This document shows positions 3,696 to 22,133 of a DNA stretch of 64,000 nucleotides, one piece after another (position 1 is the stretch's first letter; every line of letters starts with the position of its first letter). Under the pieces are notes generated by a model. That model saw only the letters and a list, made by a program, of their open reading frames with translations, did not search any database and had not been told where the DNA came from. The stretch is taken from contig CAZPJY010000005.1 of assembly GCA_964587045.1 (NCBI GenBank), forward strand, positions 183 to 64,182, given 5' to 3'. Source of the stretch: an uncultured Methanosarcinales archaeon. GTDB lineage: Archaea > Nanobdellota > Nanobdellia > Woesearchaeales > CAZPJY01. Position numbers and translations under genes: made by a program.

Positions 3696-3788
3696 TTTCC
3701 ATCACCTGTGGATTAGGTGGCCAGGCATATATATGAATTATTGGGGTGATATTTCTCACCACATTAATATACTTTTTAGAAATGGTGA

Positions 3789-4289: not shown

Positions 4290-4410
4290 CCTTGCAACGG
4301 AAACTTCAGTCCTTTTTATACATTTTCTCCATTAAATAACTACTTAATAGTAGTAAAAAAAGGAAAGATTTATATATGGGTAGAGGCTACCTGCAGTATG
4401 AGGTGATTCA

Positions 4411-4578: not shown

Positions 4579-4589
4579 GGTGATAGATA

Positions 4590-5015: not shown

Positions 5016-5099
5016 TTTTTCATTCATTCTTCAACATATACAACACCATACCGAAATATTTTTAATAAAGCGTTTTTCTGACTTGTCTTTGGGGGTAAC

Positions 5100-6702: not shown

Positions 6703-7611
6703 CTAATCGAATTCGACCACTGAGAGGGGATGGTCTGAGTGCCGGACCTCGGTTATCGATCCCCGGTTGAACTCAAACGCCCTGCCGCGGGGGTGCAGCC
6801 TCTTCGCCCCGTCGAACGACGCCCATCCTGTCTCGATCATGTAGCTCTGGACCCTGAGGACCTCGCCAGGCCTGATGATTCCGAACCTCACCTCAGGCTC
6901 GTAAGTCCCCATCCTCTTGGGTGATACCAGCCTGAACCTCAGATTTTCCTTGTCTTCCGAGCTGAAACGCGCCTCTTGTGGCAGGTTGTAGTTGTTGTTG
7001 TACCACCCTTCCTGTCCGTCATAGGTCGATACCAGGACGCCGCTTGCCCCCTGCCTCTTGGTCCACATGCTACCGTATTCGATCCTGTGCCTGAAGTAGC
7101 CTGTGGAGAGCATGTCCCCCAGGTAGAGGTCGTTGGTCGCGACGTCTGCCTTAGATCCGTTGCCCATCACCTTGCCCTCTATCCTGACTTTCTCGCTGGT
7201 CCTGTACTTGCCTGCGACGAAATCCTCGAAGCGCGGCAGGTAGTCGTCGAAGCTGAGCTTCATATGGCCGCCTTCGGAATCGGGGGACGCCCTGATCCCG
7301 AGGACAGGGAGCTTATCGTGGATAAAGCACGCAGTGCCGAAGTAGGTGCCGTCGCCTCCCACCACCACGACTGCGCTCCTGTCTTTGAAGTGCTCTTGGG
7401 TGAGGTTCTCTCTCAGAACCATCTCAAAAGGGACTTGGTTCTTTGATAGGACATCTTCGATTCCATCAAGGGTGGAATAATGCTTATCGTGGCATGCGAG
7501 CATGAAGTCGTAGTCCTCCTGGCTGGCACGGACTGCTTTTTCCACGTTGTACTTGATGCAGTCCTGGTAGTATTCCAGCTGCGATTTCTTAGTCACTATG
7601 AGGACGCTCAT
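6703..7611 (-). CDS. nadK: NAD+ kinase
   Basis: VVVVGGDGTYF (GGDG motif), NDLYLGDM; start moved to MSVLIVTKK (7683-72); overlaps upstream gene end. Confidence 0.85.
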   Translation of the reverse strand: MSVLIVTKKSQLEYYQDCIKYNVEKAVRASQEDYDFMLACHDKHYSTLDGIEDVLSKNQVPFEMVLRENLTQEHFKDRSAVVVVGGDGTYFGTACFIHDKLPVLGIRASPDSEGGHMKLSFDDYLPRFEDFVAGKYRTSEKVRIEGKVMGNGSKADVATNDLYLGDMLSTGYFRHRIEYGSMWTKRQGASGVLVSTYDGQEGWYNNNYNLPQEARFSSEDKENLRFRLVSPKRMGTYEPEVRFGIIRPGEVLRVQSYMIETGWASFDGAKRLHPRGRAFEFNRGSITEVRHSDHPLSVVEFD

Positions 7612-8548
7612 TCCTCCACCTCTCATAATCCTTGAGTATCCTTGGGTGGTCCACGAATGCGAACTCGTTGGGGTAGTCTTCAACCTTGAATACGCGTGAG
7701 TTCTTGGCGTCGTCTCCCCAACCGATCTCCTGCTCAGTCCTCCCGATGAAGGTGTGCGTGACGATGTGCCACCTCGGATCCCTTTTTGGGTCGTCGTAGT
7801 AGCCGAGGTAGTCTGTTATTTCGACGTCTACCTTGAGCTCCTCAGACATCTCCTTCACCGCATTCTCCTTGAGCGTTAGCCCGTAGTCGAGCATCCCGCC
7901 TGGGATGGCCCAGCCGTACGGCGAGTGTTTCCTCTCGATGAGGGCGATTCCCCGGAACTCGCCCCTGTCGTAGACCTCGACGATGCAGTCCGTTGCCATC
8001 CGGGGATGTTTCTTCTTCATGAGCATACCACCTCTCTTGTCAAGCATCTCAAGCGATATGAGCCTTTCCCTTGCTCCGATTTCATCGAGGTAAGCGATGA
8101 CCTTGGAGTCGAGCACGCCATCCAGGGGTTCGCAGTCGATTATCATCTTCCTGATCCTGGTCGCGGATACGCCAGGGATGGTAGGGAATCTTTCGATGCG
8201 CACGCCGAGCCTCGCGATCTCCTCGGCCTCTCTTTGATTGTTGGTGAAGTATACATCTGGCTTGAGCTGGCTCACGACCCGACTTGCCCAATACTGGATG
8301 TCATGCACATCCTCAACAGGCTGTATCTCGACGCTGTCGCCGAGCACAAGCCTTATCATCCTCTCCCTTTCAAGGTACGTGAAAGGGTCGGCTACCCATG
8401 GCTTTGAGGGATGCTTGTGCACGTGGTTGTACTGGGCGCTCCCTATGCCTATTACCAGGTCGTCGATTCCCCAGCTCCTGATATGCTTGATCACACCCTC
8501 ATGGTGTAGTCCGAACGGGTTGAACCTCCCCAGGTACGCTCCTCTCAC
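7589..8548 (-). CDS. bifunctional NMN adenylyltransferase (NadM-like, degenerate HxGH) fused to Nudix hydrolase (ADP-ribose pyrophosphatase-like)
   Basis: GRFNPFGLHHEG and VSATRIR (ISxTxxR) NMNAT motifs, then Nudix box GGMLDYGLTLKENAVKEMSEELKV. GTG start overlaps the nadM TGA (GTGA); the first ~88 aa of the track ORF are R-rich non-protein-like. Confidence 0.75.
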   Translation of the reverse strand: MRGAYLGRFNPFGLHHEGVIKHIRSWGIDDLVIGIGSAQYNHVHKHPSKPWVADPFTYLERERMIRLVLGDSVEIQPVEDVHDIQYWASRVVSQLKPDVYFTNNQREAEEIARLGVRIERFPTIPGVSATRIRKMIIDCEPLDGVLDSKVIAYLDEIGARERLISLEMLDKRGGMLMKKKHPRMATDCIVEVYDRGEFRGIALIERKHSPYGWAIPGGMLDYGLTLKENAVKEMSEELKVDVEITDYLGYYDDPKRDPRWHIVTHTFIGRTEQEIGWGDDAKNSRVFKVEDYPNEFAFVDHPRILKDYERWRNERPHSD

Positions 8549-9117
8549 AAGCCATCCCTCCGGGCCAGTTCCTTGAGCCTGTACTCTGCGTTGATGCTGT
8601 CCCATACTTTCAGGGTGCCTTCCGGCAGGTACTGGCGGTAGTCGCCTCCGCTTAGAGCAAGGTTCCTTATTTTCGTCCCGCTCATCAAGCGCTTCTCCTC
8701 GTCGATCCCTCTCACTTCGATATTGTCGTTGGAGGCCAGCATCCGCACGACAGTGTTGCCGGCGTATATGACGTGGAAGGGAGGCATGATGGCCTTCACG
8801 TAGGGGAACCATTTGGAGTAATCATGAACGTCCCATACGGGCAAAATCGCCACAGGCTTGACAATCCCTTCAATGCTGGATCTTATCATCATTTGCCTTT
8901 CCTCCAGGGTGAACGGGTTATGCAGCCATCCGGCCTCAGGGCTCCTGCGATTCAGGTCGTACTGCGCAGAGCCAATGCCTATTATTATCTCATCGATATC
9001 TGGCGAGCGGTCCATCAACTTAATCATCATGAGATGCCCCTTGTGGAAGGGCTGAAATCTGCCTATGAATAATCCGCGCCTGGCGTCTGGCCTGTAGTAG
9101 ACTTTCAATACGTCCAT
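8545..9117 (-). CDS. nadM: nicotinamide-nucleotide adenylyltransferase, archaeal type
   Basis: GRFQPFHKGHL and SGTKIR motifs. Confidence 0.85.
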   Translation of the reverse strand: MDVLKVYYRPDARRGLFIGRFQPFHKGHLMMIKLMDRSPDIDEIIIGIGSAQYDLNRRSPEAGWLHNPFTLEERQMMIRSSIEGIVKPVAILPVWDVHDYSKWFPYVKAIMPPFHVIYAGNTVVRMLASNDNIEVRGIDEEKRLMSGTKIRNLALSGGDYRQYLPEGTLKVWDSINAEYRLKELARRDGL

Positions 9118-9140
9118 CCTCCGCCGGAATTAGCGGCTTC

Positions 9141-10082
9141 TTATAAACCATTCGCTATCCTCAGGTCGTATTGCGTCGGGGCAAGTATGCGTTTAGGCTC
9201 TTCAAGTTTGCAGACAGGCGCCGGCTTTGACTTGAATTGCGCCCCTTCGACCATCCTGTAAATCCTTTCGATTAGGTCGAGCCTCACGCCTGTCGCCTGG
9301 AGCACCTCCTCCTGTGAAAAACCAAGAACGATACCGAGGAGTATCTTGTCTATCGTCTTGTAATCCATGCCCAGTTCGCCTTCGTCTGTCTGGCCTGCCC
9401 AAAGCTCAGCTGAAGGGGTGCGCTCGATGATCCTGCTGTCGACCTCCTGATAGGCGGCCAGATCCCAAACCTGGGTCTTGAACAGCCCGTCGATTCCCTC
9501 GTTGTCGACCCCGCCTGTCCCGTCTCCGGCTATCGTCGCATAACCGAGCATCCTTTCGGTAGCGTTGCTAGTTCCAAGAACCGCGTAACCTCTTAACCAA
9601 TTGTGGTCTCGTAGTCCTTTCATCCTCTGTCTTGCGTGAAGATTTCCTATCCGAACGAGATTTTTGTACGACTTATCATTTGGGTCAATGTTTAGCCATC
9701 TCATGTCTGCAGCGATGCACTTCTCAAAGAGATCAGCATCGAGTATCTCGTAAGAAATTTGGAGCTTTTTTGCAAGATTCTCTGCTAATACTATGCTGTC
9801 CTTAGTTGTAAAATACGATGGGAGCAGCATGCCATGCACATTCTCATTTCCAACTGCCTTTACCGCCAATGTGGCTACAAGCGCCGAATCTATCCCTCCA
9901 GACAAACCAATGGTGTATCCAATCGGTCCGGGTTTAACTGATGCAAGAGTTTTGTAGAAATGGGTGATTACCTTCGAGACCCTTGCCTTTTCATGGTTAT
10001 CCATCCTGAGCAAAGCTGCGGGGTCATTCATGTATAGCTTGGGTCTCATGCCACGTAAGTCAAAATTGGTAAGTCGGTCCAT
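9141..10082 (-). CDS. nadE: NH3-dependent NAD+ synthetase
   Basis: PP-loop GLSGGIDS; 313 aa. Confidence 0.9.
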   Translation of the reverse strand: MDRLTNFDLRGMRPKLYMNDPAALLRMDNHEKARVSKVITHFYKTLASVKPGPIGYTIGLSGGIDSALVATLAVKAVGNENVHGMLLPSYFTTKDSIVLAENLAKKLQISYEILDADLFEKCIAADMRWLNIDPNDKSYKNLVRIGNLHARQRMKGLRDHNWLRGYAVLGTSNATERMLGYATIAGDGTGGVDNEGIDGLFKTQVWDLAAYQEVDSRIIERTPSAELWAGQTDEGELGMDYKTIDKILLGIVLGFSQEEVLQATGVRLDLIERIYRMVEGAQFKSKPAPVCKLEEPKRILAPTQYDLRIANGL

Positions 10083-10741
10083 CAGAGCTTTCCCTCCAGC
10101 ACTTCCTCAGTCGTGACCAGCTTCACGCCGAGGCCTTTCCACTTGTCGTAGATATCTTGCCTGCTCTCTTCTGATATAGGCTTCATCGCGTCCGTTACGG
10201 CGTACACGTTGTAGCCTCGCTGAGCGAGTCCGGTGATGGCGAAGTCGTTGCAAACCTCAAGCGCCACGCCCATGACTATTATGTCCGTCAGCTCGAGGGC
10301 CTTCAGAACCTCCTCTGTGTGGGGGTTGCTGAATACGTCAAACTTTTGTTTCCTCATGTACACTTCGCCCTGGTGCTCCTTTAAGACGTCTGAGAGGCTG
10401 CCGTACACCTGCTTGCCTCCCTTTTCCATCTTGCCGTCCGTATCGATCCAAAGGGGGTCTTTTGGCCTGGTCTCGATGATCTTATCAGCCCCCCATGTTC
10501 CAGCGATGCAGTGCTCATTGTAGGTGGTCTTGTAGTCTGGCTCGTCTGATATTTCCTCATCGCCTAGGCTGTGCCAGTCCACGGAACCTGTTATCTGGAT
10601 GCCTTCCTTTCGCGCGTAGTTGAGGATCCTAGACAGTTTATCGTTGATCTCGCCAGCTCCCCGGATCGAAAGCTTGCCTTTCTCTTCCATGAAGTCGTTT
10701 TGCGTATCCACGTCCCAAATCGCGTATTTCATTTTATTCAC
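10082..10741 (-). CDS. pncA: nicotinamidase (isochorismatase family)
   Basis: IWDVDTQNDF, catalytic Cys in VMGVALEVCNDF; ATGA overlap with nadE. Confidence 0.85.
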   Translation of the reverse strand: MNKMKYAIWDVDTQNDFMEEKGKLSIRGAGEINDKLSRILNYARKEGIQITGSVDWHSLGDEEISDEPDYKTTYNEHCIAGTWGADKIIETRPKDPLWIDTDGKMEKGGKQVYGSLSDVLKEHQGEVYMRKQKFDVFSNPHTEEVLKALELTDIIVMGVALEVCNDFAITGLAQRGYNVYAVTDAMKPISEESRQDIYDKWKGLGVKLVTTEEVLEGKL

Positions 10742-10953
10742 CTCATCCTTGTTTGGATTATCTCATAACTTTGCTTGTTCAGTATCCGGGCGATCTCCTC
10801 GGTCATGTCGGACATGATCTCTGCGCTGACTCTCTCTTCCTTGTAGCGGACGATCACGCGGAGCGGCTCCTCCTCGACCCGGATGCTCTTGAGGGGGAAC
10901 CTCTTGTAGAGGCTTCGCATCTTCTCGATAACGTCCTGCTCGATCATCCTCAC
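10738..10953 (-). CDS. small hypothetical protein inside the NAD operon
   Basis: 71 aa; 4-nt overlaps with both pncB (upstream) and pncA (downstream). Confidence 0.45.
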   Translation of the reverse strand: MRMIEQDVIEKMRSLYKRFPLKSIRVEEEPLRVIVRYKEERVSAEIMSDMTEEIARILNKQSYEIIQTRMR

Positions 10954-12359
10954 CTCAATTCGGCGGCTAGTTTGTCTGTCAGGTCTGATAGGTTACTGCT
11001 GAGCCGCACGGCGTATTTCTCTGACTTGTGTATGTCCCTGTACACTGCTGGTATCTTCGCCCTCTCTTTTATGGAGTATTCTCGGATCTCACTGATGGAG
11101 GGGAAATCATAGATTATCTCTCCCTTCTCCATTATTGGTATAAGCAGGGGCTTCCCATCAGAGTTCTCATCCCAAAGCGTTATGGCGTCGCCTGCGTACA
11201 TGCCCTGTTCATCGAATCTCCTGTAAACTTGCTTCTTGGATGGGAGGGTCATCTTGGCCATCTCGCTTGAGAGTTTCATCTTTGGTATGACTTTGCTGCC
11301 CTCACGGCGTTCCACCTCTTTGTATACTCCGGGGAGGGCCGCAACGCCTCCTTCCTTAGTGAATGGGTTGTAGACTGCACCAGTTATAAGCCTAGTCCCA
11401 ACACCGAACCCATCTATGGGAGCTCCCTCTTCAAGTAGCCGGTCGATTGTGAACTCGTCCAGGTCGTTTGATGCGAAGACCTTGACATCAGTTAGGCCTG
11501 CTTCGTCCAGTATCTTCCTTACTTCCCTTGAGAGTTTGAGGAGATCGCCTGAGTCGAGCCTCACGCCTTTGAGCTGGTATCCTCTCTCAGCGAGCTCCTT
11601 ACCAACAATCGCTGCGTTCCTCGCACCCTGCACCGTGTCGAATGTGTCTATCAGCAGTATCGGGTTGTGCGGGAACACATTGGCGTAGTCGCGGAAGGCT
11701 GTAAGCTCATCAGGTCTGTCTTGGACGAACTTATGGGCCATGGTCCCGACATAAGGCAACCCGAATTTTTTTCCAGCGGCGACTAGGGAGGTGCCCACAG
11801 CTCCGCCGATGTACGAGGCGCGTGCTCCTAACATGGCGGCATCGCGGCCGTGGGCCCTCCTTGCACCGAAATCAAGAAGTGTTTTTCCTTTTACGGTCTC
11901 TGATATCCTCGCGGCTTTCGTGGCGATGAGGGTTTGGAAGTTCATCATGTTGAGCAGGTAGGTCTCAATCAGCTGGACGTCGATTGAAGGGCCGGATATG
12001 TTTATGATCGGCTCTCCAGGGAATACTGGCGTTCCCTCAGGGACAGCGTATATGTCACCCTTAAACTGGAAGTTGCGCAGGTAGCCTATGAAATCATCCG
12101 ACAAGTCGCCGTTTGACGTGTCCTGAAGCCACTTGATGTCCTCTTCTGAGAATTTGATGTTCTTGACGAAGCTCACGACCTGTTCGAGGCCTGTGCTCAC
12201 CATGTAAGAGCCTTGCGGAACCTTCCTGACGAAGTAGTTTTCCGTGATTTCGACATTGTTATCCAAAGCATGGTCGGCCATGCCCATGGTCAGCTCGTAG
12301 TAGTCCTCGAATAGCGCGAGCTCGCTTTCGGTTATCAGTCCTGAGTTCGGTGCGTTCAT
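10950..12359 (-). CDS. pncB: nicotinate phosphoribosyltransferase
   Basis: ALFEDYYELTM N-terminal motif, 469 aa; SD AAGGAGGA 6 nt before ATG. Confidence 0.9.
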   Translation of the reverse strand: MNAPNSGLITESELALFEDYYELTMGMADHALDNNVEITENYFVRKVPQGSYMVSTGLEQVVSFVKNIKFSEEDIKWLQDTSNGDLSDDFIGYLRNFQFKGDIYAVPEGTPVFPGEPIINISGPSIDVQLIETYLLNMMNFQTLIATKAARISETVKGKTLLDFGARRAHGRDAAMLGARASYIGGAVGTSLVAAGKKFGLPYVGTMAHKFVQDRPDELTAFRDYANVFPHNPILLIDTFDTVQGARNAAIVGKELAERGYQLKGVRLDSGDLLKLSREVRKILDEAGLTDVKVFASNDLDEFTIDRLLEEGAPIDGFGVGTRLITGAVYNPFTKEGGVAALPGVYKEVERREGSKVIPKMKLSSEMAKMTLPSKKQVYRRFDEQGMYAGDAITLWDENSDGKPLLIPIMEKGEIIYDFPSISEIREYSIKERAKIPAVYRDIHKSEKYAVRLSSNLSDLTDKLAAELR

Positions 12360-12471: not shown

Positions 12472-12632
12472 AACATATTGTGTAGTATACACTAACTAAT
12501 ATATAAATGTTGTGAATATTTGCTTCAATTTCGAACTGGAAGGCGTGGGGAGCAATTATTTTGCGTTCTGGCGGGTTCTGTTAGTCCCATTTGGCGAATA
12601 ATATATATAGTTGGGTTCCACCCCGCCAGCTG

Positions 12633-13673
12633 ATGGAGAAGCTGAAACCAGACATCCTGGCCCTCATAAGGGAGGCGATGGGGAGCAATCTCGACAAATC
12701 AAAGGAGGATTTTCCTTACCATCCCAACCCTCGGTACAGACCGGTCAGGTTCAGCGCAGACAATTTTTCCTTCCCAGAAAAAAGTCATGGGAGGACCATG
12801 CGCTCCTTCACCGACGGCGGCTCGGCAGACATCATCGTGGCGCCCAACTTCTGTGTCGGGATGGTCAGGACCGCATGCGTCGGCTTCCTGGACAGGCAGC
12901 GCGTTTCCAACACGAGGAGGGAGTACTACTACTTGACATCCCTGGTTAGCCCTGAGAAGATAAAGGCTGAGCTGTTCCCTGTCAGCGGCAAGGAGGAGCA
13001 GATAGCGCCGTTGGGGTTCGACACAAAAGAGCTCTTCGACGATGAGGTCGACCTCTCGCAGGTGACGCATACCATCAGGAAGATACTAGAGCTGAGGCTC
13101 GCTGTCGAGGCAATGGACACTCTTCCCGCAGGCTCGATCATGACCCTCGACGGCACGCTCGAGTGCAGGAACCGGGCAGAGGAACCGTTTTGGAAGGCTC
13201 TAAAGCAGAAGGCCCTGAAGAGAGGCATCCTGCTCACCGCGCTTGCCAAGACGTGCAGGCTCATCACGAAGAACGGCGACTCCCTGATAGGGAGGGTATC
13301 CTCAACAGCCCCTAAGGGGGAGTGGTTCTACCATCCTGTTTTCAAGATTGAATCCGAACAGCACCAGGCCGACATGTACATAGTCAAGCTGCACAGGAAC
13401 TCGGATTATGCCTTCAGGTTCGAGATATTCTCAGAGCAGCTCAATACAGTCGATCCTGGGAAGGTGATAGGCATGCTGACCCAGCATTCAGCAGACCCCG
13501 CTTTTGTGGGCTACCCGTACGGGCTTGTGGCCGTCGACCAGGTAGCGAGGATTTCCAACTCGGAGAAGAGCTATTTGACGACCAAGCTGATGGCATCAGC
13601 CGGTGGGGATTGGAAGCGTTTCAAGCCTTATACTTCTGCGCTCAATGCGCATGAGAAATTGGATAAGAAATAA
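12633..13673 (+). CDS. NurA-domain 5'-3' nuclease-like protein (stand-alone)
   Basis: TDGGSADIIV and IMTLDGTLE (DG[ST] motifs) plus C-terminal GYPYGLVAVDQVARIS, which matches the NurA C-terminal motif. Start moved to MEKLKPD because TATA ataatatatatag lies inside the track ORF (TTG start). Confidence 0.5.
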   Translation: MEKLKPDILALIREAMGSNLDKSKEDFPYHPNPRYRPVRFSADNFSFPEKSHGRTMRSFTDGGSADIIVAPNFCVGMVRTACVGFLDRQRVSNTRREYYYLTSLVSPEKIKAELFPVSGKEEQIAPLGFDTKELFDDEVDLSQVTHTIRKILELRLAVEAMDTLPAGSIMTLDGTLECRNRAEEPFWKALKQKALKRGILLTALAKTCRLITKNGDSLIGRVSSTAPKGEWFYHPVFKIESEQHQADMYIVKLHRNSDYAFRFEIFSEQLNTVDPGKVIGMLTQHSADPAFVGYPYGLVAVDQVARISNSEKSYLTTKLMASAGGDWKRFKPYTSALNAHEKLDKK

Positions 13674-13680
13674 AAAAAAA

Positions 13681-14178
13681 TCAGCGTCTACCTCCTTTCT
13701 TGTGCCCGCGGAAGTCCCCTTGACTGCCCTTGGGCCCTACCTTGTGATCAGGGCCGCGTTTCTCACCTTGGCGGAAATTCTGTTTGTTCCTGTTTTGGTA
13801 CATGTCATGGATACCGTCGCCGTCCCGGTCCATCCACCTGTGATGGTACTGGTTGGCAAACTTCCTTGCATGGTGCTCCCTGAACATGTTCATCGCCTGC
13901 TGCTCAGCACTGCCGTAGCCCATCCTGCGGTGATTCACCCAAGACTGCTTCATCATGGGATTTTGTTCCCCACGCTGGTACTTCGACCTGAACTTTACCT
14001 TGTATTCAGGCCCATTGCCGTCAAATTTTTGGTACCTATGCGAGTTGCGCAACTCCATCCTGTGCTCTATCCTCTGTTGGTAGGGCTTTTGGTCGAACTC
14101 TTGGCCTAACGCTATTCCCCCACCCAGTAGGCCTAGGGCGACCAGCGCCTCCAGCCCGAATTTAGTCACTTTGTTCAT
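13681..14178 (-). CDS. secreted basic H/Q/R-rich protein
   Basis: signal peptide ALVALGLLGGGIALG; low-complexity H/R/Q/N-rich mature part. Confidence 0.5.
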   Translation of the reverse strand: MNKVTKFGLEALVALGLLGGGIALGQEFDQKPYQQRIEHRMELRNSHRYQKFDGNGPEYKVKFRSKYQRGEQNPMMKQSWVNHRRMGYGSAEQQAMNMFREHHARKFANQYHHRWMDRDGDGIHDMYQNRNKQNFRQGEKRGPDHKVGPKGSQGDFRGHKKGGRR

Positions 14179-14182
14179 ATTC

Positions 14183-14812
14183 TCATTCCTCCCAAGAAGG
14201 GATTATTATGATATAATTATCCCCTTTCTTCTCTATACGGAAGCCCTGATGGAACCTCTGCAACCGCCTGTCGAGATCCTCATGGAAGCGGTTCATGCGC
14301 TTCTTGAACTTCTCATTGTCGAAGCGCTTCCTGAACTCTTCGGGTTTCATCCTCTTCCACCTTTGGTCCTTCATCCCGAAGTCGAAGCTCTTGTAGAACT
14401 CCAAGCCCTCAAGCGTCTTGAGCTCATCAAGCTTGGGGAGTATTTGGTCATAAAGCCGGTTTTGCAACTCCATCATTTCCTTCCTGTTCTCCCTCATCTG
14501 CGTCCTGAACTCCTCCCTGTGCTCCTTCCAGTACTTCTGCATCTCCTGATGGTGCTCTTTCCTCAGCTCCTCGAACTTGGGCGCGTATTGGTCAACAATC
14601 TTGTCAAGGTCCCCAATTATGGCATCAAGCTTCTCCTTCTCAGGCCCTTTGACCTCGAACTTGTATATCTCCACCCTCGGTTTGGGCATCTGCTGCTCCT
14701 GCGCAGCCTTGGGCTGGTAATGCTGCTGAGCCGCGGCTGTGCCAACACCTCCGATCAGGAGGGCAGCGGTACTGTACGTCAGAATTTTGCTCCTCAAATT
14801 CATGGAAACCAC
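14183..14812 (-). CDS. secreted charged helical protein
   Basis: N-terminal LTYSTAALLIGGVGTAAAQQ signal; K/E/R-rich heptad-like remainder. Confidence 0.5.
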   Translation of the reverse strand: MVSMNLRSKILTYSTAALLIGGVGTAAAQQHYQPKAAQEQQMPKPRVEIYKFEVKGPEKEKLDAIIGDLDKIVDQYAPKFEELRKEHHQEMQKYWKEHREEFRTQMRENRKEMMELQNRLYDQILPKLDELKTLEGLEFYKSFDFGMKDQRWKRMKPEEFRKRFDNEKFKKRMNRFHEDLDRRLQRFHQGFRIEKKGDNYIIIIPSWEE

Positions 14813-14876
14813 CTCGTCTTAATGAACTGTCTGGCGGTGGCGGTCAATAATCTTTTCCCAGTAGAATATATCAATA

Positions 14877-15749
14877 CTAGTGACGGCCCCCGCCTTTCCT
14901 CTGAAAACGGTTCTTCTTCATCTGGTCCCAGGGTGACTGGTGGATTCGGTCCATGTCCTTGATCATCCCGTCGAGGAATCTCTTGGTGTGCTCGTCCTCA
15001 AGGTACATGTTTAGCTTATGGAAGCTGTTTTTCGCATCAGCTAGGCGGGACTTCATCCTGTCCATGATGTCCTTGACATCGCTATAGTAATTGCCCTTCA
15101 GCTTCACGTTGTCCAGGGAGTTGATGTTGTCCTTGTTGAGCACGATGTTTTCCTTCTCGATACCGAACTCCTTAATCACTATCTGGCCCAGGTCGGGATT
15201 GCCATCGTCATTGTTGTCGAAGAGCTGGATGTCCATTACGAGGGGCTCTTGCTTGTCGAAGATGAAGTACTGCATGTGGTTGATGCCGCCCTTCTGGTCC
15301 GGATTGAATCCTCTGTAGAATATTATTGGGGGCTCGAGGCCCTCAGGTGTGGGGGGAGGCATGGGCATCATCGGGTAGGCGGTAATCCTTCCGTCCTGCT
15401 TGTCCTTATCCTTCAGCTGCTTGTAGGGCGTGTTCGGGACCTTGTTCTTCTCGTCGTTGACGGTCCTCCAGTAGTCCCGAAGCCTCTGTTGGTACTTTTG
15501 GTATTCCCCAATGTACTTCCTAACCGCATCCCTCTGGCCCATCTTGGTGTTGCTGAAAGCCACCATCACAGGTGTGTCCGACGACTTGTAGCCGTACACC
15601 ACATAACCCCCGTTGACTTCTATGGGTGGTGACCTCTTGATAAGGCGCGGGTGAAGCCTGTCCTGGGCATAAGCTCCGCTACCCGCGAGAAATAAACCAG
15701 CAAGTACATAAGGAATGGCCTTGTTCCGGATCCAGGACATTGTATTCAT
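14877..15749 (-). CDS. secreted protein
   Basis: AIPYVLAGLFLAGSGAYAQ signal peptide; 290 aa. Confidence 0.5.
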   Translation of the reverse strand: MNTMSWIRNKAIPYVLAGLFLAGSGAYAQDRLHPRLIKRSPPIEVNGGYVVYGYKSSDTPVMVAFSNTKMGQRDAVRKYIGEYQKYQQRLRDYWRTVNDEKNKVPNTPYKQLKDKDKQDGRITAYPMMPMPPPTPEGLEPPIIFYRGFNPDQKGGINHMQYFIFDKQEPLVMDIQLFDNNDDGNPDLGQIVIKEFGIEKENIVLNKDNINSLDNVKLKGNYYSDVKDIMDRMKSRLADAKNSFHKLNMYLEDEHTKRFLDGMIKDMDRIHQSPWDQMKKNRFQRKGGGRH

Positions 15750-15764
15750 AGTATCACCAGCATG

Positions 15765-17741
15765 TTATTCTCTTTTTCCACTATGGTTACTATTGAGTCT
15801 TATCAGAGCCTCTTCTAGGCGTTTAGACTTATCTTCTTTTGAATAGTAATTCAGTTTTCCAAGCGCGTCGATGCAGTTATCTATGCACTCCCAAGCTAGG
15901 CAGTCGTAGCCTTCCTTACCGAGACGGAGATACCAGTCTCTGAAGCTGGCGTGGTGAGCCAGTGATTTATGGACAGCAGCAGTATAATATCCTATAATCA
16001 GCTTGTCATCAATCTTGATCTTCTGTATATTCGCATCGGAGGCGAGCGCGTTTGTAAGGCTAATGATTCGGTCTAGGGTTTCCTCCCTGTCGAATTCGAA
16101 CCTTCCCATTTCAAGAGCTGTTGCGATATCCATAACGAATGGCGAGTTCCTAAGCTCCTCGAAATCCAGGACCTCAACTCTCCCGTCGTAGAATATCATG
16201 TTCTTCAGCGAATTGTCCTTATAGAAGTCCGGCGGCAGCTTGGCGATGTTTAGGGCCAGGGAAGGGTAGTTGCTTTCAATTGCCCGCACAAGTTTATTTA
16301 GGCCGTCTCGGCTATAGAAGCTGGCAGAAGCTGAATTGCCCTTTACCTTTGTCAGCAAGCCGATGGATGCTCCGAAGGCGTTTTCTACATGGTTGCTAGG
16401 ATGCACATCGTAAAGGAGGTCCTTGCATGAGTGCATGCCTACTGTCCTGACCTGAGCAAGTGTCTGGACAATCAGCTCAATAAGGTCATCGAACGGCATT
16501 TTTAAGTCCCTCCTCTGGATTAGGCAGTCGAGCATGTTGTTTCCGGTTATCCTTCCCAGGATGAGCGTGTCGGCTTTGGGGATGTAAGCGTGGTGGTCCA
16601 CGGTCTTGAGGGCAAGCCCGAGCTCCGCAGATGCCTTGTGGAACCTCAAAATCGCCTCGGATTCCTTCTGAAGCGCTTCGCTGTGGGACTTTGGAACCCT
16701 CTTGAAGATATACAGGTTAGGCATGTTGGTGTTCTCGAAGCTTGCCTCTGCCACCTGGAACTTGGCGTGGTCGATCAGCTTGAATCGCTCCTGGGGGATT
16801 ATGGACAAGGCGCGCTTCCAGTAATCTTTTGGCTGGTTCATGTGGGGGAGGCCCAGGCTCGCGAGACTCGCAAGGTTGCCCAACGCAAGCACTGAGGATT
16901 CCAAGTCGTTCCCTATCGCGTTCTTGAATCCCTTCAGGGCCTGCTCGTACTCTTCCAGTTCCATCTCGCACGCTCCCAGGTTGTTCCAGGTGTGAGGCTG
17001 AGGGTCAAGGTGGAGTGACCTCAAGTAGGCATCTTTTGCCTTTCTGAATGCGGATTGGGAGAACCACTTGTTGCCTATGCTGTACACGATACTTGCCAGG
17101 CCACGCTTCTCCTGTCTTTTCAGCCGGCCGATGGAAGAAGCTTCCGTTACCAGCTGCTCCAACCCTTGCGTTGTATCATCCTGGAGAGCTTTCTTGTACC
17201 TGTCCAAGAAGTCAGTTTCGCTGCCATATGTGGTACATTTCTCTTTGTCCTCACCGATGACCTCAAGGCTGGCCTTGAGGTACTTCTTCCTGTACCTCTC
17301 TCTCCCGCTCAGCTTCCATAGTTGGTAGAGTATGGCTGGATTTCCCTTGTCCTTCCGTGATGCCCTCCTGTATAGGGCAAATGCGCGTTCTGGCTCATCC
17401 TCTTTGATCAGGTTGGCCAGGTTGTGCATGGCCTGCGGATATCCCCTTCTTGAAGCGTGCTCAAAATGCGCTCTCGCCGCAGAGGGATTGCTGTTCAGCT
17501 CGATTACTCCCAGGAAGTTCGATGCTGCGGCGTCGCGTGTCTTGGACTCCATCGCAGAGGAAAAGTATCCCTTGGCCTTCTCCATGTTACCTTGTAGGTA
17601 ATTGAGCACTCCGAGGAGGTAGTTGACCTCGCCCCACTTCTTGGAACCCTTCGTTAGCGAGGCTAGCGATATCTCGTATTGGCGCGCGGCATCTGCGTAT
17701 TCGCCTTTCCTCCAGTGCTCTTCTGCTATTCTAGATTCCAT
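15765..17741 (-). CDS. Sel1/TPR-repeat protein fused to an APH/choline-kinase-like phosphotransferase domain
   Basis: Sel1-like repeats (RRGYPQAMHNLANL) N-terminal; C-terminal HSCKDLLYDVHPSNHV (HxDxxxxN catalytic loop), VLDFEEL (D[FW]E) and FVMDIATAL, as in aminoglycoside phosphotransferases. Confidence 0.6.
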   Translation of the reverse strand: MESRIAEEHWRKGEYADAARQYEISLASLTKGSKKWGEVNYLLGVLNYLQGNMEKAKGYFSSAMESKTRDAAASNFLGVIELNSNPSAARAHFEHASRRGYPQAMHNLANLIKEDEPERAFALYRRASRKDKGNPAILYQLWKLSGRERYRKKYLKASLEVIGEDKEKCTTYGSETDFLDRYKKALQDDTTQGLEQLVTEASSIGRLKRQEKRGLASIVYSIGNKWFSQSAFRKAKDAYLRSLHLDPQPHTWNNLGACEMELEEYEQALKGFKNAIGNDLESSVLALGNLASLASLGLPHMNQPKDYWKRALSIIPQERFKLIDHAKFQVAEASFENTNMPNLYIFKRVPKSHSEALQKESEAILRFHKASAELGLALKTVDHHAYIPKADTLILGRITGNNMLDCLIQRRDLKMPFDDLIELIVQTLAQVRTVGMHSCKDLLYDVHPSNHVENAFGASIGLLTKVKGNSASASFYSRDGLNKLVRAIESNYPSLALNIAKLPPDFYKDNSLKNMIFYDGRVEVLDFEELRNSPFVMDIATALEMGRFEFDREETLDRIISLTNALASDANIQKIKIDDKLIIGYYTAAVHKSLAHHASFRDWYLRLGKEGYDCLAWECIDNCIDALGKLNYYSKEDKSKRLEEALIRLNSNHSGKRE

Positions 17742-18577
17742 TGGTAACCCTTCAGGAATTTCAGGTACTTGTCGATGTTTCCCATCCTCTCATTTATTTC
17801 CATGGTCCTGTAAAGTATGATGTCAAGCTTCACGCTGTTCCTCTCTTCCTCATCGTTTACGATTAGCATCTCTTCTGTGAGGGATTTCGACATCTGAATC
17901 AGGTCTGATTTTATGTCGCTGTCCTTTATCGGCTGGTTGAGGACGCCTGCTGAGAAGAGTTTCTGCTCTGCTTGATGCTCGTATCCCCCGCCTGTTTTGT
18001 AGCCCGTACTGATGACCTTGAGGATGTAGGCCTCGTCCATGTCGGTCAGCTCCGTATGCGTGGCTGAAATGGCTTGCTTGATTTGTTTGAGCAGTTTTTC
18101 TAGGTTCTGACCCGGGTCCGGGCTCACTTCGGGGTCGCCGACATAGTTGGCCAGCCTTATGATTTTTTCGTCGCCAGAGTAGAGGACCTCCTCTATCATG
18201 AGCCTGAGCTTAACCTCCTCATCATGGGTGAGATTGAAGGTATGCAGCGCCTCGAGCGCGTAGTCTACCTGGTCGTACTGCTCACTGTCGTCAGGGACCC
18301 ACATGACGTTGAATAGCTGGTCTTCGAGGTTCTTCCTCTGCTCGTCGACCTTGACGGCAGCGTCCAGGTACCTGCCTTGAACGTATGCTTTCTTGATTTC
18401 AGAATTGATGTGATTATATTCTTCTATCTCTAAGCCGGTGTAGCCGCCGTAAAGGCTGAGGCTGAGCCCAGCCAGCACCGTAGCTGTCCTGAACAGCTTG
18501 CTGGAGCGGATGCGTTTCCACAGTCCCGCTCTCACGTGTGGGGTGTCACCCAGATGGACGAGGTATTTGCCCGCCAT
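17726..18577 (-). CDS. membrane-anchored protein (single N-terminal TM)
   Basis: LFRTATVLAGLSLSLYGGYTG hydrophobic segment; 16-nt overlap with downstream kinase gene; TATA cttataaaaagg upstream. Confidence 0.5.
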   Translation of the reverse strand: MAGKYLVHLGDTPHVRAGLWKRIRSSKLFRTATVLAGLSLSLYGGYTGLEIEEYNHINSEIKKAYVQGRYLDAAVKVDEQRKNLEDQLFNVMWVPDDSEQYDQVDYALEALHTFNLTHDEEVKLRLMIEEVLYSGDEKIIRLANYVGDPEVSPDPGQNLEKLLKQIKQAISATHTELTDMDEAYILKVISTGYKTGGGYEHQAEQKLFSAGVLNQPIKDSDIKSDLIQMSKSLTEEMLIVNDEEERNSVKLDIILYRTMEINERMGNIDKYLKFLKGYQWNLE

Positions 18578-18714
18578 GAAGGGCAGAAGAAAAGACCCTT
18601 TATAAAAGCCTTTTTATAAGAAGCAATATATTGTGATACTGGTATACAATAGATAAATATGAAATTCACTATTGTTCCATAATATTTTTATATGCAACAA
18701 TATTACTATATTGC

Positions 18715-19608
18715 ATGCAAAGGAAAGTCATAAAACAGGGCAATGACACACTAACCATCACCCTGCCAAGGAAGTGGACCGGCCAGTACAACATCAAGGC
18801 AGGGGACGATCTGGAAGTCGAGGTCCGTGAAGGATCCCTAGTCCTGTCAACTGAGAAGAGTGCGGCGATGCAGGCTCTCGATATCTCGATAAGTACGCCT
18901 AAAGACTTCCTCAAGAGGTTCATCGATGTACCTTATCGGCACGGATATGATGAGATAAAGGTCTCTTTCGATGATCCTAAGGTTCTCCCACTGGTGCAGG
19001 CAGAGACCGAGAACCTATTGGGATTTGAGGTCGTGGATCAGGGGAAACGCACCTGTGTATTAAAGAATGTCGCACAGGCTATGGAGTCTGAGTTCGACAA
19101 TCTGCTGCGGAGGATATTCCATCTTACAAAGACGACGTGGGAGGAGGCGCTAAGTGCGACCAAGACCGGTTCCTTCGATGAGCTCGAGAACGTAAAGAAC
19201 ATGGAACGCATCAACCACAAGCTGACCAACTTCTGTGAGCGCGTCCTGAACAAGAAAGGCTACACAGAGAGGCACAAGACCACGACTATATTCTACCTGG
19301 TAGCTCAGCTGGAGGTAATCGCTGACGAGCTTCGCGACATATGTGTTACGGTCAGGGATTATAAGCTCAAGATGTCGCCAGAGCTCTACAAGCTGTTCAA
19401 GGAGGTAGGTATCCTGTTTGATGCAATGTACCAGTTGTTCTACAAATTCGACCACAAGAAGGTTGTCGCGATGACTGCAAAGGAAAAGGAGCTGGTGAGG
19501 CAGTGTCTTGACATGATTGTACAGAAGAAGGGTGCAGAGGTGCTCGTACTCCACCATCTGCTTTCTCTGGTGCGTGCAATCCATCATGTGACCGACTTCT
19601 TGTACTGA
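18715..19608 (+). CDS. AbrB/SpoVT-PhoU domain transcriptional regulator (archaeal PhoU-like)
   Basis: N-terminal swapped-hairpin VIKQGNDTLTITLPRKWTGQYNIKAGDDLEV; helical PhoU-like C-terminal region; TATA aatatttttatatgc at -20 to -34. Confidence 0.7.
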   Translation: MQRKVIKQGNDTLTITLPRKWTGQYNIKAGDDLEVEVREGSLVLSTEKSAAMQALDISISTPKDFLKRFIDVPYRHGYDEIKVSFDDPKVLPLVQAETENLLGFEVVDQGKRTCVLKNVAQAMESEFDNLLRRIFHLTKTTWEEALSATKTGSFDELENVKNMERINHKLTNFCERVLNKKGYTERHKTTTIFYLVAQLEVIADELRDICVTVRDYKLKMSPELYKLFKEVGILFDAMYQLFYKFDHKKVVAMTAKEKELVRQCLDMIVQKKGAEVLVLHHLLSLVRAIHHVTDFLY

Positions 19609-19644
19609 GATAGTTTAATATAGGTGCTGGCCCGGTTTCTTCCC

Positions 19645-20070
19645 ATGAGTAGTGGGCAGCTGGCAGGTTATCAAACAGGAGGGAAGAATGATTACACTCG
19701 CCAGCAGATGCAGGAACCTGGAGGGTATGATCAAAAGGATGAAGCGCTCAAGCAAATGGTTAAGAGGAGGAATCCGGTGTGGGTATTTCTGTTTGGGATG
19801 TTCACCTTGGGAATTTACACCTTCATATGGCTAGTCTCAACATCTAAGGAGCTGAGGAATTTTTCGGCGTCTGCACCCAATCCGAACCTGCTCTGGCTCA
19901 TCCTGATCCCATTCGCCAATGCGATAGTTATGATTATCTATTTCTGGGAATACAGCAAGGCCTTGAGCGATGCCACCCACTTCAACTCCGGGACCCTCTT
20001 CTTGCTTTTTGTCCTTTTGACACCGGCTGGCATGCTTGTGGCACAGAAGGAGCTCAACCAGTTGGTTTGA
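19645..20070 (+). CDS. small membrane protein (DUF4234-like GIYxxIW motif)
   Basis: FTLGIYTFIWLVSTSKEL and two further TM segments; start moved to MSSGQ (GTG in track) with TATA agtttaatatagg ~25 nt upstream. Confidence 0.5.
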   Translation: MSSGQLAGYQTGGKNDYTRQQMQEPGGYDQKDEALKQMVKRRNPVWVFLFGMFTLGIYTFIWLVSTSKELRNFSASAPNPNLLWLILIPFANAIVMIIYFWEYSKALSDATHFNSGTLFLLFVLLTPAGMLVAQKELNQLV

Positions 20071-20725
20071 GTGCCTCTTTGACAAACACATTCAATTTGA
20101 TGCTGAATCGTTTCTCAAAAAGATTATCAAAGTTCTGTTTGAGGGGTTTCTTGGCGAATTCTTGAAGGAATCTTAAGATTTTTTTCCAGCCGAACATTTT
20201 ATACATCTCCTTGAATATAAGATAACTGAGAACATAGAACTTGTCTGCGTTAGCATAATACCTTTTTTTGATATATCTGTAGTAGAGATACTTATCAGGG
20301 TTGCTAATCCCTCGGAAATGCTTTTTCCACCCATTTTCATCTACCTTGTAGCTACCCATTAGGTATGTCGCAATACCTTCACTAAGCCAGACGGGATTGT
20401 AATTACCTACAAGAGTCTTGTAGAAGATGTGATTAATCTCGTGGAAGAAGAATGATTCAGTATCATATGCAAGCTTGTGCACCTTTGGCGATATCAGGAT
20501 GATTGTATTGCCTTTGACATATCCATTCCTTATGGTTTTCCTCTCATAGACTCCTGTCGCCTTGTCATATTCAGCATCAGAATAGACCAATTTTATCTTG
20601 TATGGCTTTGGATTGATTCCAAAGAGCTTCTTATTCTTCTTTTCAGCTTTTCTGGCAGCTTTCCCAACAATATTCACAGAGGGATCAGACTTGTCTGAAA
20701 GGATTATAAAACTATCCTTGTCCAT
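20054..20725 (-). CDS. Peptidase_MA_2-like zinc metallopeptidase, AT-rich gene
   Basis: FFHEINHIFY...NPVWLSEGIATYL (HExxH...WLxEGxAxY); markedly lower GC (~38%) than flanks. Confidence 0.55.
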   Translation of the reverse strand: MDKDSFIILSDKSDPSVNIVGKAARKAEKKNKKLFGINPKPYKIKLVYSDAEYDKATGVYERKTIRNGYVKGNTIILISPKVHKLAYDTESFFFHEINHIFYKTLVGNYNPVWLSEGIATYLMGSYKVDENGWKKHFRGISNPDKYLYYRYIKKRYYANADKFYVLSYLIFKEMYKMFGWKKILRFLQEFAKKPLKQNFDNLFEKRFSIKLNVFVKEALKPTG

Positions 20726-21935
20726 CCTTGATCTCCTTCATCAGGATCTCCTGCTCGAAAACCGCCTTGGCGAACTCATCAAGCGAGAATGGGACCCTCC
20801 TCTCATCGCGCTGGGGCGTCTGCACTTTGCGCACTAACCTGTGCTTTGCCAGCAGCTGGAGGTTGCGGGAGATAGCGGGCCGCGATTTGTCCACGACCCG
20901 GCTTATCTCCGTCGCGGTCACCTCATTTCCGCCCAGGTGTATCATCGCTAGGATGATACGTTTAAGCGTGTTCTCTTTCTTCTGCCAAGGTTTGGGCGGC
21001 GGGATGAGCTTGGTTAGGGAGGACACAAGGTCCTGGAACGATGGCGAATGCTGTTTTAGCACAGACTCTGCCCTTGCCTTGCCCATCCTGGAAGAGAGAC
21101 AGTGCTCAAGCAAGACGGCCGAGAACTCCAGAGCGAATCGGGGGAGATTGCCTGCGTAGGACGCGACTGTTCCGAGCACATCATCACTGAGCGGGTGTGC
21201 TGTGGAGCCTTCGAGTCTGTAAAAGGCCATCCTTCTCTTGAGCAACTGAACAATGTCTCTCTGTGACAATGATGGTAACAAAATGATGTGTTCATAAACT
21301 TGGGTGAGGGTAGGTGATTCTGTGGTGAGAAATTGCCAAGCAGACGCCGTCCATGGGGAGATATAGATTACCTTGTCGCTTGACATCGAATCGAACTCGA
21401 GCACTTTCCTGAAGGTCTCGATCGTTGATTCGTTGTAATGATTCTTCGATGATAGCAAAGGCATGTTCCTGTCGCCGAAATTCGAGGTGATGATAGTAAG
21501 CTTTCCGCTTTTGAGGGAGGCCATGATGGATTTCTTGGCCTCGTCGCGAAGCTCTGGTGTGAACGCTTCTATCGGCGTGCCTATCACCGAGGCAATCTTT
21601 TCCCGCAGCATAGCAAGTTCGAGTGATGGATCGTCTTCATCAATTGTGGAAAGGAAATGCCCGAAGAGGTTGGCAACAGACCTTCCCCCGCTGCCTGAAG
21701 GAGCCACTATGGCGACGTCCTGTCCCATTCCGACCAATCCTTCCACGAGGAGGTCTGAGAGGTTCCTGACAAGGTCCTTGCGGCCGTAGAACAAGCTGTC
21801 GAAATTGGCTTTCATCGGATGCTCTGAGCCGAGAAACGGGTTGCTCCAGAATCCAAGCTTGGCGTATTTGCCGCTGAACCGATCACCCCTTTCTTTTATC
21901 CGCGAGGTGATTTCATCCTTGATGAAAGACAGCAT
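20712..21935 (-). CDS. AAA+/archaeal-ATPase-like protein with degenerate P-loop and C-terminal winged-helix DNA-binding domain
   Basis: NPFLGSEHP...FYGRKDLVRNL start typical of Arch_ATPase/AAA_16, VAPSGSGGRS degenerate Walker A, C-terminal ISRNLQLLAKHRLVRKV wHTH. Start moved to MLSFIKDE because aaaatatttaaataag TATA lies inside the track ORF. Confidence 0.5.
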   Translation of the reverse strand: MLSFIKDEITSRIKERGDRFSGKYAKLGFWSNPFLGSEHPMKANFDSLFYGRKDLVRNLSDLLVEGLVGMGQDVAIVAPSGSGGRSVANLFGHFLSTIDEDDPSLELAMLREKIASVIGTPIEAFTPELRDEAKKSIMASLKSGKLTIITSNFGDRNMPLLSSKNHYNESTIETFRKVLEFDSMSSDKVIYISPWTASAWQFLTTESPTLTQVYEHIILLPSLSQRDIVQLLKRRMAFYRLEGSTAHPLSDDVLGTVASYAGNLPRFALEFSAVLLEHCLSSRMGKARAESVLKQHSPSFQDLVSSLTKLIPPPKPWQKKENTLKRIILAMIHLGGNEVTATEISRVVDKSRPAISRNLQLLAKHRLVRKVQTPQRDERRVPFSLDEFAKAVFEQEILMKEIKDGQG

Positions 21936-22133
21936 AACCCATCCCACGCATAACTTATTTAAATATTTTTGCAAAAATGGAAACATTTTCGTAAATATTG
22001 ATTTAATACGATATTATTGATTTTTTACGATTATTATATCTATTTTTCCTAATTAGAGTATCAAAGTTCATTCAATAATATTTATTAAAATTAGGTATTT
22101 GTTATTCCATACTAAATAGAGTGAGGTGGAAAT

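Follow-up and report, generated by a model that had tools for sequence, protein, structure and literature searches.

The YihE fold is APH/choline-kinase-like, and in the pho system a PhoU-fold protein is functionally paired with the kinase PhoR. In Bacillus, phosphorylation of AbrB at Ser86 by YabT, PrkC, and PrkD lowers its DNA binding (PMC4837961). In E. coli, the Ser/Thr protein kinase YihE is co-regulated with an envelope-stress regulon (PMC9663540), and proteins that join AbrB and PhoU domains have been annotated as archaeal transcription regulators (PMC7325993; PMC6316755). Here, we describe a gene cassette in archaeal contig CAZPJY010000005.1, within the 64-kb stretch of DNA that was analyzed as a whole and is hereafter called the window (64,000 nucleotides). 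The cassette is assembled from parts of known kinds, namely a tetratricopeptide-repeat (TPR) domain, an APH-fold kinase, an AbrB-PhoU regulator, and Sec-type exported proteins. Five minus-strand genes, G1 to G5, form its body, and the regulator gene lies divergently beside G1. Its constant core is a rare kinase, G2, in which TPR repeats are fused to an APH/choline-kinase-fold domain and which is paired with the AbrB-PhoU DNA-binding regulator. The kinase family, the TPR fusion, the pairing with the regulator, the G1 family, and the operator described below all appear to be undescribed in the family libraries and literature that we searched.

Each of the closest described systems resembles the cassette in part. 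YihE/RdoA (SrkA) of enterobacteria is, like G2, a non-Hanks cytoplasmic kinase genetically tied to exported or envelope proteins (PMC9663540), but it is bacterial, has no TPR domain, membrane partner, or AbrB-PhoU neighbor, and is absent from the 50 best structural matches to G2. The YabT/PrkC/PrkD-AbrB system of Bacillus subtilis also has an AbrB-type regulator whose DNA binding is modulated by kinases (PMC4837961); those kinases, however, are of the Hanks type and are not encoded beside abrB, and the AbrB protein has no PhoU domain. The bacterial PhoU-PhoR-Pst system combines a PhoU-fold protein with a kinase, and homologues of the window regulator are annotated “phosphate uptake regulator PhoU,” but the kinase there, PhoR, is of the histidine type, bacterial PhoU lacks a DNA-binding domain, and the cassette contains no pst genes and gives a PhoU match that is below threshold. 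The two-domain architecture of the regulator (18715–19608) appears to be the same as that of the archaeal SpoVT/AbrB plus PhoU regulators, such as TK2245 of Thermococcus kodakarensis. For regulators of that type, no kinase partner or operator is described in the literature searched, whereas the DPANN subfamily found here has both a palindrome and a kinase neighbor. An earlier note on this DNA, made from its sequence, had not recognized the arrangement as a described system, and this holds up, as Pfam, NCBIfam, and PADLOC returned nothing beyond TPR and a weak APH match and literature searches returned no description. An anti-phage defense system was considered and rejected, PADLOC-DB giving only three marginal matches (E 9e-4 to 2e-3, 14–15 bits), to repeat or charged segments.

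The DNA around every member of the kinase family was recovered, and pairing was counted in the nine loci with flank for both genes. In all nine, the kinase gene stands beside a gene for an AbrB-PhoU protein of ~300 aa. The regulator gene is upstream and divergent, reached through G1, in the window and in loci L001, L002, L004, and L014; it is downstream and convergent, within ~20 nt of the kinase gene, in L007, L009/L010, and L012; and in L008, the order is kinase, PHP-domain gene, regulator. Three further loci truncated at their ends (L019, L020, and L021) hold a regulator, G1, and the first part of a G2-like TPR gene and fit the same layout as the window. Kinases across loci are only 22%–37% identical, compared with 30%–65% for the regulators, which are full-length homologues. 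The adjacency of kinase and regulator survives changed orientation and the change of all other neighbors, and the regulator is the only kinase neighbor present in every subfamily. No member of the cassette is more strongly conserved, though the regulator lies outside the five genes of the earlier note.

In the close subfamily, to which the window belongs, the divergent regulator gene is followed by a G1 homologue, an overlapping kinase gene, and then one to three genes for secreted charged proteins. The overlap between G1 and G2 is 16 nt in the window (17726–17741) and 13–23 nt across all five full loci. Three secreted-protein genes follow the kinase gene in the window and in L014 (249, 255, and 323 aa), and at least one does so in L001, where the contig ends; in L002 and L004, there is a single one, and the next gene is unrelated and on the opposite strand. 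The five-gene arrangement first picked out in the window, therefore, recurs in relatives, but the set of five is not fixed, and what is conserved is G1-G2, after which the number of secreted charged proteins varies. Given this recurrence, it is scarcely credible that the cassette is no functional unit and consists of adjacent lineage-specific genes that merely look like an operon. Such a view could draw on the fact that G3 to G5 have no demonstrable homologues and that the relatives come from few, related metagenomic lineages, but it is contradicted by the conserved gene order, the G1-G2 overlap, the regulator adjacency, and a shared cis-element, all kept across genomes whose proteins are 20%–50% identical and whose GC contents span 26%–54%. 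GC content is 54% in the window versus 26%–45% in the relatives. We consider the cassette conserved but lineage-restricted, belonging to small uncultured archaea that are probably DPANN.

G1 to G5 are real genes in one tight transcription unit, as the earlier note had proposed from five minus-strand open reading frames and the 16-nt overlap; coordinates and codon bias both agree. A codon-usage score trained on 10 confident genes of the window gave log-odds above zero for each of G1 to G5 in the annotated frame only, and by the same score, two plus-strand open reading frames (13603–14109 and 14171–14962) were excluded as shadows. Beyond the overlap, the intergenic gaps are 15 nt between G2 and G3, 64 or 73 nt between G3 and G4, and 4 nt between G4 and G5. 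Shine-Dalgarno-like sites precede G3 (GGTGAT), G4 (GAGGTG), and G5 (GGGAGGA). G1 has no such leader, and its TATA box, TTTATAAAA (18599–18607), is centered 26 nt from the G1 ATG, a spacing that would, as expected, fit a leaderless archaeal transcript. A scan of the window for bacterial promoters and terminators was uninformative, the organism being an archaeon.

G2 (15765–17741, minus strand) encodes 658 aa, with TPR repeats in its N-terminal half (16752–17741, minus strand, approximately residues 1–330) and the kinase domain in its C-terminal half (15765–16760, minus strand, residues 328–658). It has no hydrophobic window and so shows neither a signal peptide nor a transmembrane helix. Pfam models TPR_1 (42.3 bits, cut-off 27.8; E 5.4e-11), TPR_16 (35.4 bits, cut-off 32.7), and TPR_2 (33.8 bits, cut-off 27) all match the N-terminal half, and the TPR plus kinase architecture is common to P0007, P0009, L004, and L014. 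G2 had previously been read as a Sel1-repeat protein with an APH-like kinase domain; we do find it to be a cytoplasmic repeat protein whose kinase domain has the APH/choline-kinase fold, but the repeats are TPR, neither G2 nor its relatives matching Sel1 (PF08238) at E ≤ 0.1. For the kinase domain, Pfam APH (PF01636) gave 16.4 bits, under the gathering cut-off of 23.2, and the relative P0013 reached 28.6 bits, above it. When the kinase domain or the family profile was searched against PDB sequences, only TPR designs and one APH chain at E = 1 came back. Neither Pkinase (PF00069) nor HisKA/HATPase_c was matched by any cassette gene in Pfam or NCBIfam.

The AlphaFold2 (AF2) model of the kinase domain, built with family members as the alignment, reached a pLDDT of 81 and a pTM of 0.85, and its fold is of the APH/choline-kinase type that had been proposed from the sequence. 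In a Foldseek search against the PDB, all of the top 50 matches were APH, choline/ethanolamine-kinase, MTR-kinase, or other small-molecule kinase structures (E 9e-6 to 9e-4, TM-score 0.4–0.55, 10%–16% identity). The DFE motif named by the earlier note is present, at residues 526–528 with D526 as the metal-binding Asp, whereas the note's HxDxxxxN loop is YxDxxxxN, reading YKDNSLKN (D509, N514) with Tyr in place of His. D509, N514, D526, and E360 of helix C are kept in every full-length family member. The basic residue of strand 3 is K347 in the window and Arg in P0007, P0008, P0009, and L004, the alignment of distant members being uncertain there. The kinase domain thus looks catalytically competent. 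With the APH, choline/ethanolamine, and MTR kinases, it shares the bilobal fold, the catalytic Asp, Asn, and DFE-Asp, the short segment after DFE, and the helical C-lobe. It differs from the APH group in its sub-threshold Pfam score, the Tyr for His, a helical insert of ~100 residues between hinge and catalytic loop, the TPR fusion, and two family-specific motifs, LRNxPF-x2-D/E-(I/V)-A and, in the C-terminal helices, HHASFxDW.

This family is very small. An exhaustive HMMER search with residues 328–658 among 1.84 billion representative proteins yielded nine clusters: the query; P0007, P0008, and P0009 (34%–37% identity); the fragment P0010; and the distant P0011 to P0014. In a genome scan, L004 was the one true relative to come up, and L005 and L006 were TPR false positives. 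Full-length G2 and G1, when used in word-indexed homology searches, returned the query alone, TPR words having probably swamped the G2 search. The sole return of a metagenome scan was L013, a fragment of the same organism on JGI contig Ga0315542_1025508 (2626 bp) that corresponds to window positions 14374–16999 at 100% identity and so carries G3 in identical form; the same population was therefore sampled independently. We regard the G2 kinase as a divergent, very small new branch or sister family of the APH/choline-kinase superfamily, not a plain member of it.

The fold alone gives no substrate for G2, and the principal alternative to the regulatory reading developed below starts here. G2 may be an APH/choline-kinase-type small-molecule kinase, anchored by G1 and acting on a metabolite, a lipid head-group, a surface-glycan precursor, or an antibiotic; the AbrB-PhoU protein would then sense substrate, product, or phosphate, and the secreted proteins would use or bind the product, making the cassette a surface-modification module. 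The nearest folds are consistent with this, as they include PsiK, the corramycin and capreomycin phosphotransferases, MTR kinase, APH(2''), APH(3'), choline/ethanolamine kinase, and glucosamine kinase, and so is the passing Pfam APH score of P0013. The DFE...N...D-I-A segment of G2 also resembles the choline-kinase/APH motif. A regulator gene adjoining an enzyme gene is the usual pattern of metabolic operons, and a PhoU-like domain, in a protein with homologues that bear the name “phosphate uptake regulator,” suggests that phosphate or a phospho-compound is sensed. The similarity of fold is modest, however (TM-score ~0.5, 10%–16% identity), and does not define a substrate; a protein-binding TPR domain of 330 residues, fused in nearly every member, is atypical of small-molecule kinases. 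Moreover, the cassette includes no other conserved metabolic gene, and the regulator is the sole neighbor conserved across subfamilies. On balance, we consider a small-molecule kinase possible but doubtful.

The regulator gene (18715–19608, plus strand, divergent) lies beyond the coordinates of the earlier note and encodes 297 aa. Its N-terminal DNA-binding domain, of the AbrB/MazE/SpoVT swapped-hairpin type, matches MazE_antitoxin (PF04014) at residues 6–49 with 31.9 bits (cut-off 24.7). The C-terminal helical part is PhoU-like, matched by PF01895 with 19.6 bits, under the cut-off of 23.5, and by TIGR02135 at 9e-4; several homologues carry a precomputed PF01895 match together with the name “phosphate uptake regulator PhoU.” All named homologues, whether under that name or as “AbrB/MazE/SpoVT” proteins, are from Woesearchaeota, Nanoarchaeota, or Aenigmatarchaeota, which makes DPANN the likely origin of the window too. 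The window regulator is 47%–52% identical to those of L001, L002, L004, and L014 and 30%–41% identical to those beside the distant kinases. The regulator family, with at least 157 clusters, is much larger than the kinase family. A gene for a DUF4234 membrane protein (19624–20070, plus strand, 148 aa from a GTG start) begins 16 nt past the regulator stop codon and may be co-transcribed with it. It is not kept at that position in relatives, and L014 has an acetyl-CoA hydrolase gene there.

Between the regulator gene and G1 lies a control region of 137 bp (18578–18714, 26% GC), which holds a putative operator (18646–18676). Its half-sites are ACAATAG at 18646–18652 on the plus strand and AACAATAGT at 18668–18676 on the minus strand, and together they form the inverted repeat ACAATAG-N16-CTATTGT. 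ACAATAG occurs only twice in the window, and both copies are these, inverted inside the control region. The palindrome sits between the G1 TATA box and that of the regulator (18684–18693), which is centered 26 nt from the regulator ATG at 18715.

The exact 9-mer AACAATAGT is also present in the regulator-G1 regions of L002, L004, L014, L019/L020, and L021, and in the G2-G3 regions of L001, L002, and L004; in the last two of these, it immediately follows a TATA box. L019, L020, and L021 each have it nowhere else, and there it is arranged as CAATAGTAT-N11-ATACTATTG; the regulator-G1 region of L001 has the variant GAATAGTAT. Overall, seven of the eight long intergenic regions of the cluster contain the 9-mer, against a chance expectation of 0.2%–1% per region by resampling; the 9-mer was picked after inspection, but by a rough estimate, any shared 9-mer at such a rate would still be very unlikely. 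Around the regulator TATA box, the window and L002 agree at 23 of 26 nt. Because the proteins of these genomes are only 20%–50% identical, neutral conservation of the element is not expected. The palindrome is a putative operator of a shared transcription factor, for which the AbrB-PhoU protein is the obvious candidate by adjacency. The G2-G3 gap of the window does not contain the element, and a copy with one mismatch, AACCATAGT, lies at 15780–15788, within the end of G2. As that gap is 15 nt long and without the element, G3 to G5 are probably read through from the single G1 promoter in the window.

G1 (17726–18577, minus strand) encodes a predicted single-pass membrane protein of 283 aa. Its first 30 residues hold seven Lys or Arg and one Asp and are followed by ~20 hydrophobic residues, as in the signal anchor described for it earlier, and by the positive-inside rule, we infer an orientation with the N-terminus in and the C-terminus out. 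The protein consists of a basic tail of ~30 aa (with invariant P13 and W20), one transmembrane helix, and an all-alpha outer domain of ~230 aa. The outer domain is conserved in the family alignment, with Y-V-G at 145–147 that reads YVGSYS in relatives. The AF2 model of G1 is all-alpha, with 11 helices and a pLDDT of ~88 outside the tail and the transmembrane helix. Compared against the PDB, the model gave no significant fold match (best E 0.065, TM-score 0.2); the top match, the McpS sensor domain, was discounted at that TM-score. Neither Pfam nor NCBIfam matched G1. Homologues occur at the same position in L001, L002, L004, L014, L019/L020, and L021, and BLASTP gave E values of 1e-9 to 1e-15 for the window protein against relatives (small databases) and up to 1e-69 among relatives.

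The three remaining genes encode predicted secreted proteins, and their N-termini agree with the signal peptides assigned to them before. G3 (14877–15749, minus strand, 290 aa) is K/D/N-rich and has the signal sequence IRNK-AIPYVLAGLFLAGSGAYA|QD, G4 (14183–14803, minus strand) has MNLRSK-ILTYSTAALLIGGVGTAAA|QQ, and G5 (13681–14178, minus strand, 165 aa), strongly basic and the last gene of the unit, has MNKVTK-FGLEALVALGLLGGGIALG|QE. All three predicted signals have a short basic n-region, a Gly/Ala/Leu-rich h-region, and an A-x-A-like end before Gln. G4 probably starts at ATG 14803 (206 aa), not at GTG 14812 (209 aa), because its GAGGTG ribosome-binding site is placed 6 nt upstream of that ATG and because the protein collection, which holds the products of G1, G2, G3, and G5, does not hold the GTG-start product. 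G4 is rich in K (12%), E (12%), R (8.6%), and Q (7.2%), and G5 in G (12.7%), R (10.9%), K (9.1%), Q (9.1%), and H (6.1%), with 33 K+R against 17 D+E. Features of G3 are PMMPMPPPTP, a segment rich in proline, and the loop DNNDDGNPD; Pfam and NCBIfam gave no family match for this protein. This loop and DRDGDGIHD of G5 resemble DxDxDG calcium-binding loops; the sole database support is a weak Excalibur match in G5 (E 0.035).

The secreted proteins of the relatives form one family among themselves (E 1e-12 to 1e-57), but G3, G4, and G5 showed no significant similarity to them by BLASTP or by a family hidden Markov model (HMM). Against the HMM of the relatives' third-gene family, G4 scored 13 bits, a weak and compositionally biased match, and against the relatives' family HMM, G3 scored 2.8 bits, over the proline-rich segment. 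The RG/H-rich 255-aa protein of L014 is a compositional analogue of G5, with no sequence homology shown. G4 and G5 as such are thus not conserved in relatives. The position 3' of the kinase gene is conserved in kind, that is, for an exported, charged, low-complexity protein, and not demonstrably in sequence; the secreted proteins diverge too fast for homology to be shown. In L014, the N-terminal 90 residues of the second and third secreted proteins are 59% identical, which points to a recent duplication. A gene for a small STAS-like protein (weak Pfam match) lies 3' of the three secreted genes of that locus on the same strand. These features of L014 are at 3735–4016 and 4163–5917.

Composition had led the earlier note to liken two of these proteins to Spy/CpxP, which would make the cassette an envelope-stress module with G4 and G5 as periplasmic-type chaperones. 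Their helical, charged, H/Q/R/K/E-rich character and the precedent of YihE in the Cpx response speak for this, but the likeness goes no further: no LTXXQ, CpxP, Spy, or other Pfam match was found for G3 to G5 at E ≤ 0.1, nor an LTXXQ, CpxP, or Spy match in NCBIfam, and G4 and G5 are not kept in relatives. We therefore consider an envelope-stress module very improbable. A different role would follow if G2 were a cytoplasmic TPR chaperone-kinase that holds and/or phosphorylates the disordered, highly charged secreted proteins before export, with G1 docking the complex near the Sec translocon. Genes for secreted, charged, low-complexity proteins follow the kinase gene wherever downstream sequence exists in the window's subfamily; the G2 TPR domain weakly matches the LcrH/SycD secretion chaperones (1.2e-5, far under the model cut-off), and the overlapping G1 and G2 genes suggest a membrane complex. 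However, the distant subfamily keeps the regulator with no secreted-protein genes nearby, and the secreted gene of the relatives has its own promoter region, such that stoichiometric co-synthesis is not required. This makes a chaperone-kinase improbable.

The reading that we tentatively favor, at somewhat under an even chance, is a regulatory cassette in which a membrane-tethered kinase and an AbrB-PhoU factor together control surface or secreted proteins. The AbrB-PhoU protein would bind the palindrome and regulate its own gene as well as the G1-G2-(G3-G5) operon. G2 would be an active ATP-dependent phosphotransferase held at the membrane by G1, whose conserved basic N-terminal tail would be what the TPR domain most likely binds; through translational coupling, G1 and G2 could be made at 1:1. 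The outer all-alpha domain of G1 may sense a condition outside the cell. G2 could then change the activity of the AbrB-PhoU protein, either by phosphorylating it, as happens to AbrB in Bacillus, or through its PhoU-like domain, by analogy with PhoU-PhoR. The output would be secreted cationic or charged proteins at the cell surface, serving, for example, in host-cell contact or in binding anionic polymers. In its fullest form, this would be a new archaeal transmembrane signaling system in which a G1 sensor recruits an APH-fold kinase via TPR, the kinase acts on or partners with the AbrB-PhoU factor, and the factor switches secreted cationic proteins via the AACAATAGT palindrome; we consider that complete chain rather unlikely.

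Several points weigh against the regulatory cassette. The contacts of G2 with G1 (TPR domain to tail) and with the regulator (kinase to regulator) are pure inference, and the operator is assigned to the regulator by adjacency alone. All 50 of the best structural matches to the kinase model are small-molecule kinases, with no protein kinase among them. In keeping with the ChoK/APH type, the stretch that follows DFE is short and lacks an activation loop of the protein-kinase kind, and close relatives have Arg at the strand-3 Lys position. A sensor role for G1 is a guess, its modeled outer domain having no significant structural relative, and the signal peptides of the cassette proteins are read from sequence alone. 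Regulators without a kinase occur, as in L017, whose regulator (40% identity) has no kinase nearby; because of this and of the larger regulator family, the kinase appears as an accessory partner of a subset of regulators. Finally, the distant subfamily keeps the regulator and its loci (L007 to L012) have no G1 and no secreted-protein genes, and in L007, L009, L010, and L011, a Lon-like protease gene lies upstream of the kinase (partial and unannotated in L007). Since G1 and the secreted proteins are absent there, membrane sensing cannot be the general role of the kinase family.

In those distant loci, the Lon-like AAA+ protease genes (815 aa; L009 2788–5235, L010 1962–4409, and L011 2862–5309) occupy the place of G1, and the equivalent place in L007 (1–2502) holds the unannotated partial gene, of 833 aa. 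A HEPN/nucleotidyltransferase pair lies farther upstream in L009 to L011. Genes for PHP-domain phosphoesterases occur at or near the distant pairs (L008 2123–3148, L009 9899–10741, L010 9073–9915, and L011 176–1024), that of L008 overlapping the kinase gene, and the PHP phosphoesterase could be a cognate phosphatase.

Elsewhere in the window, a plus-strand gene (12591–13673) is convergent with G5, and just upstream of it is a minus-strand run of genes for salvage and synthesis of nicotinamide adenine dinucleotide (NAD) (6703–12359). These encode a nicotinate phosphoribosyltransferase (10950–12359), an isochorismatase/nicotinamidase-like protein (10082–10741), NAD synthase (9141–10082), a cytidylyltransferase-like protein (8545–9117), an archaeal-type nicotinamide mononucleotide adenylyltransferase-Nudix-like protein (7589–8812), and a weakly matching NAD-kinase-like protein (6703–7683), all on the minus strand. 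On the other side of the cassette, two overlapping minus-strand genes (20054–21986) encode a 424-aa protein with a P-loop-like N-terminal half (weak STAND/AAA match) and a C-terminal MarR/ArsR-type winged helix, and a 223-aa peptidase-MA-like protein with an HExxH motif. A 703-aa protein (55836–57947, minus strand) fuses a KamA-type lysine/glutamate 2,3-aminomutase radical-SAM domain (residues 33–352) to a D-Ala-D-Ala-ligase-like ATP-grasp domain (residues 387–682), a combination that suggests synthesis and ligation of a beta-amino acid. The window also holds a match to an archaea-specific SMC-related protein and a weak NurA-like match; together with the archaeal-type adenylyltransferase and the AbrB-PhoU regulator, these indicate archaeal DNA. 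Its GC fraction is ~0.47–0.56 in the first 34 kb and 0.54–0.63 from 36 kb onward, and no tRNA or Rfam element was found anywhere in the 64 kb.

The genomes of DPANN archaea are small, and how these organisms perceive their environment or control the surface proteins that meet host cells is poorly understood. The cassette offers a testable regulatory unit, comprising a regulator, a candidate operator, a rare kinase, a membrane partner, and variable secreted outputs. In most loci, the candidate operator AACAATAGT occurs as a palindrome or as a pair of repeats. Were the kinase to act on a small molecule, it would represent a new TPR-fused branch of the APH/choline-kinase superfamily. If it acts on the AbrB-PhoU protein, the pair would be a new route of archaeal signal transduction and would give a first function to the widespread “PhoU-type” regulators. 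Should the full signaling cassette prove true, it would fill in DPANN archaea the role played elsewhere by two-component and Hanks-kinase systems.

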